NCBI RefSeq assembly: GCF_053078305.1
Contig: NZ_CP166879.1
Reading direction: 5' to 3' (one strand)
Length of the DNA: 64,000 nucleotides
The stretch's first letter is position 1. Each line of letters begins with the position of its first letter. The notes under the pieces were generated by a model. That model did no database searches. It was given only the letters and a program-made list of their open reading frames with translations, and was not told the origin of the DNA. A program made the translations under genes and the position numbers. Positions 55,276 through 59,360 of this stretch are shown here, one piece after another.

Positions 55276-58176
55276 ATGCTGCCAGACCAGCGACCAGCGA
55301 CCAGCGACCAGCGACCAGCGACCAGCGACCAGCGACCAGCGACCAGCGACCAGCGACCAGCGACCAGCGACCAGCGACCAGCGACCAGCGACCAGCGACC
55401 AGCGACCAGCGACCAGCGACCAGCGACCAGCGACCAGCGACCAGCGACCAGCGACCAGCGACCAGCGACCAGCGACCAGCGACCAGCGACCAGCGACCAG
55501 CGACCAGCGACCAGCGACCAGCGACCAGCGACCAGCGACCAGCGACCAGCGACCAGCGACCAGCGACCAGCGACCAGCGACCAGCGACCAGCGACCAGCG
55601 ACCAGCGACCAGCGACCAGCGACCAGCGACCAGCGACCAGCGACCAGCGACCAGCGACCAGCGACCAGCGACCAGCGACCAGCGACCAGCGACCAGCGAC
55701 CAGCGACCAGCGACCAGCGACCAGCGACCAGCGACCAGCGACCAGCGACCAGCGACCAGCGACCAGCGACCAGCGACCAGCGACCAGCGACCAGCGACCA
55801 GCGACCAGCGACCAGCGACCAGCGACCAGCGACCAGCGACCAGCGACCAGCGACCAGCGACCAGCGACCAGCGACCAGCGACCAGCGACCAGCGACCAGC
55901 GACCAGCGACCAGCGACCAGCGACCAGCGACCAGCGACCAGCGACCAGCGACCAGCGACCAGCGACCAGCGACCAGCGACCAGCGACCAGCGACCAGCGA
56001 CCAGCGACCAGCGACCAGCGACCAGCGACCAGCGACCAGCGACCAGCGACCAGCGACCAGCGACCAGCGACCAGCGACCAGCGACCAGCGACCAGCGACC
56101 AGCGACCAGCGACCAGCGACCAGCGACCGTAAATCAAGAAAGTCTGTAAAATCTGTTGAACCAGACATTGCCGACCGGGCTAACAGCTGGCTCAAATCTT
56201 ATGGACTTGATTACAAACTGGAGCAGGCACCACTTAACAACGAGATCGATAACGCACTGGATGCTTATTTTTCGAAAAATGGCGGCGCAGGCGGTAATCG
56301 TCCCGACGTAAAACTCCTTGTTCAGGACAAATACGGCAAGCAGTATCCCGTTCTCATCGAGTATAAAGGCTACAAGGACAGGCTTATCAGACTTGGCAGC
56401 AACGGTATTATTGAGAACAAAGATGCCAGAAAAGAATGGAATTTTAAAAATATTAATGGATACGCGGTGAATGGCGCAGTCCATTATGCCAACGCACTTC
56501 TTCAGTTCACCAATTACCCTGATATTATTGCTATTGGTATGACCGGCTGGCGCGATGATGATACAGGCGAACTGCATCATGAAATCGGCGTGTGGTACGT
56601 ATCAAAGAATAATTTAGGAGCCGGGCAGAAGGTTGGTGAATTCACCGACTTATCATTCCTTGCTGACAAAAATGTTGATGGATTTCTCAACAAGATAAAG
56701 CTGCTTAATCTTCCTCCCGAAGAACTGGAAAAAATCAAGGCCAGCAAAGAGGAAGAGATAGACACGCGACTTTCCCGTCTGAATAACGATATTTACCAGA
56801 ATGAAAAGGGGCTTGGTGAAAGCGATCGTGTTTACCTTGTTGTGGCTACCGTTATTGCAACGTTGGGGATTCCGGGAAAGTTAGCACCGCTGGATAAAAA
56901 AGAACTGACCTCTTCAACGGAGGAGGACTTGCGTGATGGTGATATTATTTTCAGGAAAATAAGGAATTTTTTAAGGCTGAAAGCTGTTCCTGAAACAAAA
57001 AGAGAAATGATTTTGCGCTCGTTGCAAAATACGCTGTGGACTGAAAACATTAACAAACCAGTCAACGGTGAAAGCCAGTTAAAGCGCGTGTTTGTTAAAG
57101 TTGTTGATGATCTTGGGGAGTATTACAAAATCGGACTGACCACCGATTTTACGGGCAAACTGTTTAATGAGATGTATCGCTGGCTTGGATTTACGCAGGA
57201 CAAACTCAATGACGTCGTTCTGACACCACCTTATGTTGCCACATTGCTGGCACGACTCGCCAGAGTAAACAAAGATTCCTATGTGTGGGATTTTGCTACA
57301 GGTTCTGCGGGATTGCTTGTGGCTGCAATGAATGAAATGCTCATTGACGCCAGAGAAAATATTCACTCACCGAATGAACTACAACTTAAGGAAGCGCAAA
57401 TCAAGGCTGAACAGCTTCTTGGCCTTGAGGTGTTATCCAGTATTTATATGCTGGCCATCCTGAATATGATTTTGATGGGGGATGGTAGCTCGAATATCCT
57501 CAATAAAGACTCGCTAGCCGATTTTGACGGCAAGTATGGATTTGGGAAAACAGGAGAAAAATTCCCTGCGGACGCATTTATTCTCAATCCTCCGTATTCA
57601 GCTAAAGGTAACGGCATGATTTTCGTGCAGAAGGCGCTGTCGATGATGGATAAAGGCTATGCTGCAGTGATTATCCAGAGTTCAGCCGGCACAGGAAAGG
57701 CTACGGAGTACAACAAAAAAATACTCAAGGAAAATACCTTGCTGGCAAGCATCAAAATGCCTGCGGATCTGTTTATTGGTAAATCAAGCGTTCAGACGTA
57801 CATTTACGTTTTTCAGGTAAAAATTCCGCATAACGCGAAACAGGCTGTTAAGTTTATCGACTTTTCCAATGACGGCTATGCTCGCTCTAATCGCAAAAAG
57901 GCAAGAAACAATCTTGTTGATGCCGATCGTGCAAAAGAGCGTTATCAGGAGGTTGTGGATCTGGTTCACTTCGGGAAAGGTTGCCTTAATATCTTTACGG
58001 AGGATGAATATTTTGAGGGAACAATCGATCCTGATAGTGGTGAGGACTGGAATCAGACTAGGCCAGTAGATACCAGACCGACACTGGAGGATTTTAAAAA
58101 GACGGTTGGCGACTATCTTGCGTGGGAGGTGTCAAAACTTCTTCAGGGGCGTGATGCGTCAGAAAAAAAGCAGTAA
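55276..58176 (+). CDS. gamma-class N6-adenine DNA methyltransferase with N-terminal DQRPATS repeat domain and candidate PD-(D/E)xK nuclease module (BcgI-A-like / HsdM-like)
   Basis: 966-aa frame; ATG at 55276 with an AGGA RBS. Motif X/I ...VVLTPPYVATLLARL...VWDFATGSAGLLVAA; motif IV FILNPPYS. Between the repeat and the MTase: RPDVKLLVQDKYGKQYPVLIEYKGYK. Contains the 120 x 7-nt repeat in frame. Confidence 0.8.
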   Translation: MLPDQRPATSDQRPATSDQRPATSDQRPATSDQRPATSDQRPATSDQRPATSDQRPATSDQRPATSDQRPATSDQRPATSDQRPATSDQRPATSDQRPATSDQRPATSDQRPATSDQRPATSDQRPATSDQRPATSDQRPATSDQRPATSDQRPATSDQRPATSDQRPATSDQRPATSDQRPATSDQRPATSDQRPATSDQRPATSDQRPATSDQRPATSDQRPATSDQRPATSDQRPATSDQRPATSDQRPATSDQRPATSDQRPATSDQRPATSDQRPATSDRKSRKSVKSVEPDIADRANSWLKSYGLDYKLEQAPLNNEIDNALDAYFSKNGGAGGNRPDVKLLVQDKYGKQYPVLIEYKGYKDRLIRLGSNGIIENKDARKEWNFKNINGYAVNGAVHYANALLQFTNYPDIIAIGMTGWRDDDTGELHHEIGVWYVSKNNLGAGQKVGEFTDLSFLADKNVDGFLNKIKLLNLPPEELEKIKASKEEEIDTRLSRLNNDIYQNEKGLGESDRVYLVVATVIATLGIPGKLAPLDKKELTSSTEEDLRDGDIIFRKIRNFLRLKAVPETKREMILRSLQNTLWTENINKPVNGESQLKRVFVKVVDDLGEYYKIGLTTDFTGKLFNEMYRWLGFTQDKLNDVVLTPPYVATLLARLARVNKDSYVWDFATGSAGLLVAAMNEMLIDARENIHSPNELQLKEAQIKAEQLLGLEVLSSIYMLAILNMILMGDGSSNILNKDSLADFDGKYGFGKTGEKFPADAFILNPPYSAKGNGMIFVQKALSMMDKGYAAVIIQSSAGTGKATEYNKKILKENTLLASIKMPADLFIGKSSVQTYIYVFQVKIPHNAKQAVKFIDFSNDGYARSNRKKARNNLVDADRAKERYQEVVDLVHFGKGCLNIFTEDEYFEGTIDPDSGEDWNQTRPVDTRPTLEDFKKTVGDYLAWEVSKLLQGRDASEKKQ
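55288..56127 (+). repeat. perfect heptanucleotide tandem repeat (CAGCGAC) x 120, 840 bp
   Basis: Read directly: 840 nt of uninterrupted CAGCGAC units beginning 12 nt after the MTase ATG; translated in frame as 40 x DQRPATS. Confidence 0.97.
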
Positions 58177-58250
58177 ACTCCCGTCTTGCAGAGCTTGAGC
58201 GGGAGTTTATTAAATCTGGTGGTAAATGGGAAGAATACACAATCGAAAGA

Positions 58251-59360
58251 TTGTTCAGTATTCAGACACCTAAAAAGAAATTTAATGCCAATAAATTAAC
58301 ATTTAATGGCAACTATCCTTATGTTGCCAGAGGAAGTAACAATAACGGCATAAAAGGATATATAGATGAAGATGAATTATATCTCAACCCGGGGAATACA
58401 ATTAGCTTTGGTCAGGATACTGCGACTATGTTCTATCAGGAAAACGCATATTTCACAGGTGATAAAATAAAGATTTTTTCTCTCAGGCATGGAGAGTTAA
58501 ATTCGCGAATTGCTTTTTTTCTTATATCAGCAATGAAAAAATCTTTTTCAACGTTTAGTTGGGGGAGTAGCTCTTTTAATGAGAATGTTCTCAATAAGGT
58601 AAAGATAAATATACCTACGTTTAATAATGTTCCTGCATATAATTATATGGTAAAGTATATAGAAGAGCTGGAAGCGGCCCATATAGAAGAGCTGGAAGCG
58701 GCCCATATAGAAGAGCTGGAAGCATACCTGATAGCTGCTGGGCTGAGTGATTACCAACTAACGGAAAAAGATTATCTTATCCTGGAACATTTTAAAAATA
58801 TTGAATTTTCAGGCTTTCCTGTTACTGAGTTATTCTCAGTGTGCAATACAGGAAACATATTGTCTAGAGACATCATAGAAAATAGTGGGGATGTTCCTTA
58901 TCTTTGTGCTAGCCGTGAGAATAACTCTGTTAGTTCTTATATCGCCTATGATAACTCACTCTTGGAAAAAGGGAACTGTATTTTTATTGGTGGTAAGACA
59001 TTCGTTGTAACTTATCAGGAGCGAGACTTTTTTTCAAACGACAGTCATAATTTGCGACTCTATGTTAACAATGAGGATGGAAGGACAAAGTTTGCTTATT
59101 TGGGCATTATTTCATGTATTTATAGATCTATTTCACATAAATATTCATGGGGGGATAGTGTTAGTAATAGAAAAATTAAGAACGATGTTGTTTGGTTGCC
59201 AGTAAAAAATAAGTCACCTGACTTTTGTTATATAAATGACCTTATTTCAGTTGTTCATAAGCTTGTCATTAAAGATGTTGTCCAGTACGCAGAACGCAAA
59301 ATGAACGCATACAGGCAAGCTATAACAAGTCGCGGTTATGATGATTCTGGTGTCAGTTAA
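58251..59360 (+). CDS. restriction-modification specificity subunit (HsdS/BcgI-B-like, two target-recognition domains)
   Basis: Two TRD-like halves separated by a coiled-coil spacer with tandem IEELEAAH repeats. ORF-track start is TTG 58251, but the frame is open upstream to 58155 and encodes HsdS-like N-terminal residues (KSGGKWEEYTIERLF) with no canonical start. Confidence 0.7.
   Translation: MFSIQTPKKKFNANKLTFNGNYPYVARGSNNNGIKGYIDEDELYLNPGNTISFGQDTATMFYQENAYFTGDKIKIFSLRHGELNSRIAFFLISAMKKSFSTFSWGSSSFNENVLNKVKINIPTFNNVPAYNYMVKYIEELEAAHIEELEAAHIEELEAYLIAAGLSDYQLTEKDYLILEHFKNIEFSGFPVTELFSVCNTGNILSRDIIENSGDVPYLCASRENNSVSSYIAYDNSLLEKGNCIFIGGKTFVVTYQERDFFSNDSHNLRLYVNNEDGRTKFAYLGIISCIYRSISHKYSWGDSVSNRKIKNDVVWLPVKNKSPDFCYINDLISVVHKLVIKDVVQYAERKMNAYRQAITSRGYDDSGVS
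58659..58724 (+). repeat. 2.75 copies of a 24-bp tandem repeat (ATAGAAGAGCTGGAAGCGGCCCAT) in the S-subunit central spacer
   Basis: Read directly; encodes IEELEAAH IEELEAAH IEELEA. Confidence 0.9.

Follow-up and report, generated by a model that had tools for sequence, protein, structure and literature searches.

How is the specificity subunit of a restriction-modification (RM) enzyme made when its reading frame opens upstream of the only canonical start codon that it offers? This question is raised by two overlapping genes, here called A (RM subunit) and S (specificity subunit), in a 64,000-nucleotide (nt) stretch of Escherichia coli DNA from contig NZ_CP166879.1 (RefSeq assembly GCF_053078305.1), referred to below as the window. 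A first, sequence-only reading of the window had proposed that ribosomes slip into the -1 frame at the end of A and continue into S, producing an A-S fusion. The present analysis supports that proposal: judged from sequence comparison, the A/S junction is very probably a programmed -1 ribosomal frameshift cassette, with a slippery site and a covarying hairpin found in 74 related loci. This assignment draws on the signals themselves, their phase and conservation, the covariation of the stem, and trans-frame homology to single-chain enzymes; from these we infer the actual slippage, its efficiency and the assembly of a complex.

Layout of the A/S junction

Gene A matches the PADLOC model REase_MTase_IIG (PDLC03616) over nearly the full model length (E-value 4.8e-234), as well as a second PADLOC Type IIG RM model of 637 positions, the length of BcgI A (E-value 7.8e-45). 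It also matches Pfam N6_Mtase and, weakly, VRR_NUC, and it carries the motifs PD...EYK, DFATGSAG and NPPYS, which are conserved in the homolog alignment. Its predicted product is thus a BcgI-like nuclease (PD-(D/E)XK-type) joined to a gamma-class N6-adenine methyltransferase. S contains two Pfam Methylase_S matches (fusion residues 700-857 and 897-1026) and a match to PADLOC Specificity_II (E-value 5e-19), and is a predicted specificity subunit with two target-recognition domains. The RM features of A and the two-domain S together indicate a BcgI-like Type IIB layout, RM plus S. A search of solved structures (PDB) with the A-S fusion returned no match, and hence no detectable sequence similarity to BsaXI; in NCBIfam the only matches were weak ones to hsdM and MAD2 that fell short of the curated cut-offs. 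No biochemically studied enzyme emerged as a close relative.

The features that define the junction are listed below, with the phase of the heptamer written as X_XXY_YYZ relative to the gene A frame.

55276-58176, + strand: gene A (RM subunit), from the open reading frame (ORF) list and its translation; zero-frame product of 966 amino acids (aa) ending ...DASEKKQ before the stop
58155-58176, + strand: 22-nt overlap open in both frames, bounded by an S-frame TGA at 58152-58154 and by the stop of A
58164-58170, + strand: slippery heptamer A_AAA_AAG, read from the sequence in X_XXY_YYZ phase with gene A
58174-58176, + strand: UAA stop of gene A, one codon past the heptamer and inside the base of the stem
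58172-58211, + strand: predicted stimulatory stem-loop; 12-base-pair (bp) stem 58172-58183/58200-58211 plus two inner pairs, including the UAA
58170-59360, + strand: S (specificity) frame as it would be entered after the slip; 396 codons beginning AVNSRLAELEREFIKSGGKWEEY, with the stop at 59358-59360
58251-58253, + strand: TTG, the first and only canonical start of the S frame, within the conserved first recognition-domain strand (IERLF)

Read directly, the 3' end of gene A is TCA GAA AAA AAG CAG TAA, the last five codons occupying 58162-58176, and the run of seven A at 58163-58169 is followed by G at 58170. The in-phase A_AAA_AAG at the end of A, with S in the -1 frame, is therefore present as first described. 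Frame translation likewise confirmed that the S frame is open from 58155 and holds no ATG or GTG before TTG 58251; the peptide that it encodes from 58155 reads CVRKKAVNSRLAELEREFIKSGGKWEEYTIERLF. Any change of frame must fall within 58155-58176, because only there are both frames open.

The heptamer alone carries little weight. The window contains 36 copies of AAAAAAG where 14.7 would be expected, and the bare motif was rejected as evidence. Since it is uninformative by itself, the argument rests on its phase, its position in the 22-nt overlap, the hairpin and the comparative data. The 221-nt junction is 100% identical in six further complete E. coli genomes (seven with the window), all of them with seven A. 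A sequencing indel in the A run, which the first reading had allowed for, is disfavored by this identity, and a sequencing or assembly error was rejected, the frame relation also being kept in all alleles.

Downstream of the heptamer, the sequence-only reading had noted a 7-bp stem, ACTCCCG/CGGGAGT. It is indeed found at 58177-58183 and 58200-58206, starting 6 nt after the heptamer, but it proved to be the G+C-rich core of the longer 12-bp stem. The window hairpin has a minimum free energy of -20.3 kcal/mol and a z-score of -5.53, and 0 of 200 shuffled sequences fold equally well.

Comparative evidence from alleles and relatives

To compare the junction with uninterrupted proteins, a fusion query was built from A without its 5' repeat, joined to the S frame at the heptamer. 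This query matches many single-chain proteins 1050-1075 aa long (e.g., in Campylobacter showae and C. concisus), with 52-59% identity across 99% of the query. It also matches one-domain fusions (about 860-890 aa) in Flavobacterium, Chryseobacterium and Bacteroidales. Homologous loci encoded as one ORF, which the sequence-only reading had suggested looking for, thus exist, and they align across the junction in the frame combination expected from a slip on the heptamer. The uninterrupted single-chain sequence ...DYLSWEVSQILKKDSPSRSSIVSQRIADLEREFKVSGGRFEEF aligns with E. coli ...DYLAWEVSKLLQGRDASEKK followed, across the change of frame, by AVNSRLAELEREFIKSGGKWEEY, i.e. from the first S-frame residues onward. 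By this homology, the residues between the heptamer and every possible S start are a conserved part of the protein; only a -1 shift inside the 22-nt overlap can join them to A.

Split versions among the closest fusion matches all come from E. coli, Escherichia sp. or Salmonella. The two-frame overlap with its slippery site spans 16-28 nt in most of these enterobacterial alleles (up to 79 nt), and equivalent hairpins of differing sequence stand at the junction in all of them. Type-1 alleles (the window, L001, L003 and L009-L012, including Salmonella) have A_AAA_AAG, one codon (CAG, CGG, CCG, TTG or CAA), a TAA or TAG stop, and the stem ACTCC(C/T)G(C)...(G)CGGGAGT. Three variants at the second base of the intervening codon are synonymous in the S frame (GCA, GCG and GCC, all Ala) and change the A-frame residue between Q, R and P, an indication that reading of the S frame begins at the base immediately following the heptamer. 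Different type-1 alleles have A runs of 6, 7 or 8, produced by substitution, with the frame relation constant. Their stems vary as well: a C-to-T change in L001 gives a G.U pair, and the stem of L003 is longer. Type-2 alleles (L002, L005-L008 and L013, including two O111:H8 strains) read GCG GGA AAG TAA, that is, G_GGA_AAG abutting the stop, with a hairpin of unrelated sequence 5 nt on (13-bp stem, -23.3 kcal/mol, z-score -5.5); two of them have just A_AAG left.

Candidate starts for S behave differently among these alleles. The codon at the position of TTG 58251 is CTA or TTA in L010, L003, L009 and L011. Annotated S starts vary between ATT, CTG, TTG and ATG, or S is called a pseudogene (incomplete, according to the PGAP annotation, in the O111:H8 strains). 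An independent canonical S start upstream of the recognition domain in homologs had been named as one observation that would speak against the fusion; no conserved ATG, GTG, TTG or ATT start was found among the homologs examined. On these alignments, TTG 58251 is probably not the main S start.

The specificity domains themselves are diversified among the alleles. In L002 (5959-7071) and L005 (4501-5613), both of the O111:H8 type, S is split further into two pieces annotated by PGAP as partial, and the type-2 junction is intact; some O111:H8-type carriers therefore probably have a defective specificity part. The central region of S in the window (58657-58723, + strand) holds a 24-nt repeat (2.8 copies) encoding IEELEAAH units in the coiled-coil between the recognition domains. 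One to three copies occur among relatives, and two Campylobacter proteins differ by exactly one 8-residue unit. In some Type I enzymes the number of repeats at this place sets the spacing of the half-sites, as with the TAEL repeats of EcoR124I; by analogy, the IEELEAAH copy number may set the spacer length of a bipartite recognition site.

To place the junction in a wider context, 100,044 species genomes (one per species) were scanned with the last 242 residues of A, which yielded 538 relatives. Junctions were taken from the best 80 of these 538, and 74 had a recognizable junction. The best 80 come from Clostridia and other Firmicutes, Saccharibacteria, Gracilibacteria, Spirochaetes, Bacteroidota, Campylobacterota, Pasteurellaceae, Gilliamella, Neisseria, methanotrophs and others. 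In all 74 loci the RM frame ends about 20 codons past DYLAWEV, as ...LGK or ...LKK and the stop. In 72 of the 74 the -1 frame continues GK(I/V/M)(N/D)ASLNEKL..V(K/E/Q)WGE(Y/F).LGDLF, followed by approximately 370-400 codons of S; in the other two (L027 and L060) indels break S. At L027 (Eubacterium minutum CP016202, ~3750-3775) the A run seems one base shorter, the RM frame reads on for a few codons (...LKNRCLTE and a stop) and S lies in a different frame, the result of a genuine inactivating mutation or else of an error in sequencing the homopolymer.

Together with the 14 enterobacterial alleles, these 74 loci gave 88 junction sequences for comparison. In 74 of the 88, the stop is immediately preceded by G_GGA_AAA (50), G_GGA_AAG (17), A_AAA_AAA (6) or A_AAA_AAG (1). 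A canonical X_XXA_AAR is found in 77 of the 80 distinct junctions, enterobacterial alleles included, and the stop abuts the heptamer or its A_AAG remnant in 73 of the 80. The codon before a P-site GGA is CTG, TTG, TCG, CCG, GCG, GAG or GGG, and the codon before AAA is CTA, TTA, TCA, GAA, AAA or GGA. Across these sequences the covarying X base appears to follow the slippage rule, a pattern that protein coding alone would not predict. Many loci also have an S-frame stop four codons upstream of the junction, leaving a shift window of 13-16 nt that is essentially the heptamer.

The S frame also bears a coding signal directly after the RM stop. There, column entropy follows a 3-nt period in the S frame, with 1.46 at position 3 of the loop codons vs. 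1.00 and 0.64 at the others, and 1.26 vs. 0.63 and 0.66 further downstream. The candidate start seen most often in the family is a TTG 21 codons downstream; it encodes the Leu of the conserved GDLF. The A-site codon is AAG in Proteobacteria, Campylobacterota and Bacteroidota, and AAA in Firmicutes, Saccharibacteria, Spirochaetes and a few proteobacterial exceptions. Slipping on AAG depends on having only tRNA-Lys(UUU), and the AAG/AAA distribution would fit such a dependence.

These data bear on a frame change made at the level of nucleic acid, in which RNA polymerase slippage adds an A to the run of seven, or slipped-strand mispairing turns the run into an ON/OFF switch. Homopolymers such as that at 58163-58169 are known slippage sites, and the same gene has another phase-variable-looking repeat. 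However, 64 of the 80 distinct junctions are G_GGA_AAR, with only 3-4 A, and three more are A_AAG, all far too short for polymerase slippage. The runs of 6, 7 and 8 A arose by substitution and keep the same frame relation, the junction is invariant in the seven complete genomes, and no in-frame allele with eight A was seen among the enterobacterial proteins examined. A hairpin at 5-6 nt and the X_XXY_YYZ phase are, moreover, features of ribosomal slippage. Transcriptional slippage, which the sequence-only reading had kept in view, is thus disfavored, and a nucleic-acid-level change as a whole is very improbable.

Evolution of the stem provides further evidence for a ribosomal frameshift. A gap-free alignment of 73 family junctions (69 distinct) reveals a 12-bp stem 5 nt past the heptamer, and RNAalifold recovers the same stem unguided. 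Standard pairs occupy 97.0% of the stem cells, a share that drops to 34-48% if the 3' partner is displaced by 1-3 columns. Of 500 column shuffles, 0 attained the observed score in pairing or covariation, although such statistics overstate independence, the sequences being related and the family horizontally mobile. Five stem pairs show double-sided changes, and one of them occurs as UA (29), CG (16), UG (12) and GC (9). At that pair, the synonymous third base of a Leu codon (CTT, CTC or CTG) changes in step with the first base of a codon for Lys, Glu or Gln.

Three in-frame single-chain genes (L094-L096) served as a negative control and have no comparable hairpin, their best 50-nt folds reaching only -8 to -10.5 kcal/mol. 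Since these genes retain the LEREF or SVKW protein motifs, the hairpin goes with the split and not with the protein. A hairpin arising as a coding by-product of NSR...LEREF was rejected, because in-frame Campylobacter and Flavobacterium genes keep the motifs hairpin-free and because the Leu base that covaries is synonymous. Two of the single-chain Campylobacter genes carry a related motif at the RM/S boundary (ILKKD): L094 (about 2302-2316) and L095 (about 2299-2313) read TTA AAA AAG GAT AG there. This is an in-phase A_AAA_AAG whose -1 frame, AAA AAA GGA TAG, reaches a stop two codons on. From the sequence, a slip there may release free RM, a mirror image of the A/S junction that resembles dnaX gamma. 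No strong downstream hairpin was found at the L094/L095 boundary, and the motif could equally reflect AT-rich codon usage.

The existence of single-chain relatives also suggests that the junction might be dead, i.e. a disabling frameshift in a formerly single-chain gene that leaves S unexpressed and A as an orphan RM remnant or pseudogene. The incomplete S annotated by PGAP in O111:H8 strains would agree with this, as would the reported inactivity of Helicobacter pylori BcgI-like systems of the same layout (PMC3936762). Yet the same break is found in 74 loci of distant phyla, and nearly all of their S ORFs are intact (370-400 codons) with a periodicity like that left by purifying selection. 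At a dead junction, neither a slippery site nor a covarying hairpin would be retained, and the specificity domains are diversified as in active systems. Of the explanations considered, this one is the least probable.

Two further features flank the cassette.

58145-58149, + strand: AGGGG, Shine-Dalgarno-like, 14 nt upstream of the heptamer (read from the sequence)
59426-59445, + strand: terminator-like hairpin and T run, 66 nt past the S stop

The AGGGG may act as an upstream stimulator. G-rich elements also occur in the other type-1 alleles, 4-14 nt before the heptamer but at no conserved position, and most members of the wider family have none. The terminator after S fits transcription of A and S as a single unit.

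The remaining alternative is that S is made separately by translational coupling. In this scheme, termination at the UAA would melt the hairpin and expose GGGAG at 58201-58205, S would be re-initiated at ATT 58209 or TTG 58251, and the heptamer would be incidental. Several observations weigh in this direction and against a frameshift cassette. The GGGAG in the 3' arm of the window hairpin could be a masked ribosome-binding site, and GGGAG or GGGGAG lies in the 3' arm of enterobacterial alleles, for which annotation pipelines picked ATT, TTG, CTG or ATG starts. In 9 of the 88 junctions the stop is TGA and the first S codon is ATG; with this ATGA overlap, classical translational coupling could operate, and it is plausible for those loci. 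In EcoKI, translation of hsdM and hsdS is coupled (PMC3510504), weak AUA initiation occurs in reporters (PMC4066793), and near-cognate initiation at AUA or AUU may be a minor route at non-ATGA junctions. The frameshift cassette is further weakened by the 3 of 80 distinct junctions that have A_AAG alone and no full heptamer, by the poor conservation of the upstream Shine-Dalgarno-like element, and by the relatedness of the loci, which are not independent samples: as the family is transferred horizontally, locus counts overstate the number of independent events.

These points are outweighed by what separate translation of S would leave unaccounted for. No candidate start is conserved: ATT is missing in L003 and L009, and TTG 58251 is replaced in the four alleles given above. 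Apart from the 9 ATGA junctions, the remaining 79 of the 88 have ATA or GTA as the overlap codon, and the window S frame has no ATG, GTG or TTG before 58251. ATT 58209 and GGGAG are separated by just 3 nt. Ahead of every candidate start, the peptide is conserved, homologous to the single-chain linker and periodic in the S frame. Coupling also fails to explain the X_XXA_AAR rule with its covarying X, as well as the tolerance of A_AAA_AAR variants that have no G-rich element. Translational coupling is therefore an unlikely explanation of the junction, and -1 frameshifting is the reading retained below.

Proposed mechanism and related systems

In the proposed mechanism, the ribosome would hold AAA in the P site and AAG in the A site at 58165-58170, with the stem-loop at 58172-58211 positioned at the mRNA entrance. 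A fraction of ribosomes would slip one base in the 5' direction, onto A AAA AA, where the Lys-tRNAs would re-pair with AAA AAA. Slipped ribosomes would then read GCA GUA AAC UCC... for 396 codons and produce an RM-S fusion of 965 + 396 = 1361 aa, counted from ATG 55276. Unslipped ribosomes would read CAG, stop at the UAA and release free RM (966 aa). Free S would be made little or not at all. One RM-S and one free RM could then form the active enzyme, equivalent to an (RM)2S complex, by analogy with BcgI, BsaXI and the EcoKI M-S fusion. The efficiency of frameshifting would set the subunit ratio, and S would never be unpartnered.

Published measurements are compatible with such a mechanism. 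Of the -1 heptamers measured in E. coli, G_GGA_AAG and A_AAA_AAG rank among the three most efficient, A_AAG leads the tetramers by a wide margin, and a downstream structure acts as a stimulator in insertion sequence (IS) elements (PMC4066793). BcgI-type enzymes contain two RM per S, as in BcgI (A2B) and BsaXI ((RM)2S) (PMC3874165, PMC11997821). The engineered EcoKI M-S fusion restricts in vivo and needs added free M in vitro (PMC3510504).

One of the closest known recoding signals is that of E. coli dnaX, after which the sequence-only reading had named the junction. Both have A_AAA_AAG and a stem-loop about 6 nt downstream. In E. coli this heptamer is read by a single shifty tRNA-Lys(UUU). As proposed for the A/S pair, dnaX yields from one mRNA two products with a common N-terminus, at a fixed ratio and for a DNA enzyme of several subunits. 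The label holds for the heptamer but not for the outcome: the shifted ribosome of dnaX stops almost at once and makes the shorter product, whereas the shifted product of the window would be 396 residues longer, a whole subunit being added. The conserved upstream Shine-Dalgarno stimulator of dnaX also has no conserved counterpart in the restriction family.

In outcome, the junction more closely resembles the longer trans-frame fusions of phage lambda G/G-T and of IS911/IS3 OrfAB. In lambda, two overlapping ORFs are fused, the downstream one is start-less, and the heptamer is G_GGA_AAG, as in the type-2 alleles. IS911/IS3 OrfAB is likewise a trans-frame fusion of overlapping ORFs with a start-less downstream ORF, and it uses A_AAA_AAG (PMC4066793). 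The gene class is different, a transposase or tail chaperone there and an RM enzyme here. In the restriction family, furthermore, the zero-frame stop mostly abuts the heptamer, and the cassette spans phyla and both cellular and prophage genes.

Among restriction enzymes, BcgI and BsaXI share with the window an RM subunit with an N-terminal nuclease and an N6-adenine methyltransferase, and a separate frame for an S with two recognition domains. In the searchable papers their S is described as independently translated, whereas the S of the window is start-less and an RM-S fusion is proposed. Single-chain Type IIB enzymes (TstI, AloI and CjeI class) join the methyltransferase C-terminus to the N-terminus of S via a flexible linker (PMC11997821), and in the engineered EcoKI fusion M and S are joined at the same point (PMC3510504). 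The TstI, AloI and CjeI class consists of in-frame genes with one product, unlike the window pair, which would give both a fusion and free RM. A 2025 paper on BsaXI sorted 16 Type IIB systems into RM+S and single-chain groups (PMC11997821). The same start-less S layout was described in H. pylori BcgI-like systems, where the authors inferred inactivity and engineered a ribosome-binding site and start codon; frameshifting was not considered as an explanation (PMC3936762).

Genomic setting, the 5' repeat and implications

The window is part of an E. coli lambdoid prophage. The A/S locus lies just downstream of the Q antiterminator and hok genes (the Q antiterminator and Hok/Gef toxin gene region occupies 54296-55094) and upstream of tRNAs and late genes. 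The slot downstream of Q is the position of the stx genes in Stx phages, and by analogy transcription of A and S may take place both in the lysogen and together with the late operon. In Salmonella (L010), the pair adjoins genes typical of an integrative conjugative element.

A second unusual element lies at the other end of gene A.

55285-56128, + strand: 7-nt tandem repeat GACCAGC, 120.6 copies, perfect (100% matches; Tandem Repeats Finder), at the 5' end of gene A

The array is translated as (DQRPATS)n and makes up approximately 284 of the 966 aa of A. None of its three frames contains a stop, and each encodes the same cyclic heptapeptide. A unit of 7 nt is not divisible by 3, so each unit gained or lost shifts the frame. 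E. coli loci carry 120, 89, 88, 83, 80, 64, 2 and ~1 copies; relative to an ATG, the A frame is in phase in the window and L003 and out of phase in L001, L002, L004, L005 and L097. The sequence makes the repeat a likely candidate for a phase-variable ON/OFF switch of the RM gene. Lying outside the frameshift cassette, it probably gates whether A, and hence A-S, is made. In the PGAP annotation, a minus-strand 'YXWGXW repeat-containing protein' covers the array, and the starts given for A are truncated. With the 120-copy repeat and the junction, one defense gene would carry two layers of unusual translational control.

Beyond the window, the comparative data make it moderately probable that the whole mobile BcgI-like Type IIB family (538 relatives in 100,044 species genomes) makes S obligatorily by -1 frameshifting and never as a free protein. 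We rate the A/S junction as a known recoding device in a new use, and as a known enzyme class with a new expression architecture. Programmed -1 frameshifting in bacteria is known from only a handful of cellular gene families, chiefly dnaX, IS transposases, phage tail chaperones, copA and csoS2. Frameshifting in restriction systems is not mentioned in a 2016 recoding review, the GeneTack survey and its supplements, an Enterobacteriaceae heptamer survey and its supplements, restriction-enzyme reviews or the 2025 BsaXI paper, with subscription-only papers and REBASE notes outside this scope.

If the interpretation is correct, it would be the first recoding event described, within the searchable papers, in restriction-modification or anti-phage defense. 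It would add a widespread new case of -1 frameshifting in defense enzymes, with a rationale in the coupling and dosing of two subunits that assemble 2:1. Hundreds of S genes with arbitrary annotated starts or a pseudogene label would be functional, as would systems dismissed for a start-less S. Genome annotation and REBASE-type catalogues would accordingly contain S genes that are mis-started or called pseudogenes, and separate cloning of RM and S, or judging activity by ORF integrity (as in H. pylori), may mislead. The AAG vs. AAA variation in the A site across phyla would also offer a test bed for the effects of the tRNA-Lys repertoire on slippery sites.

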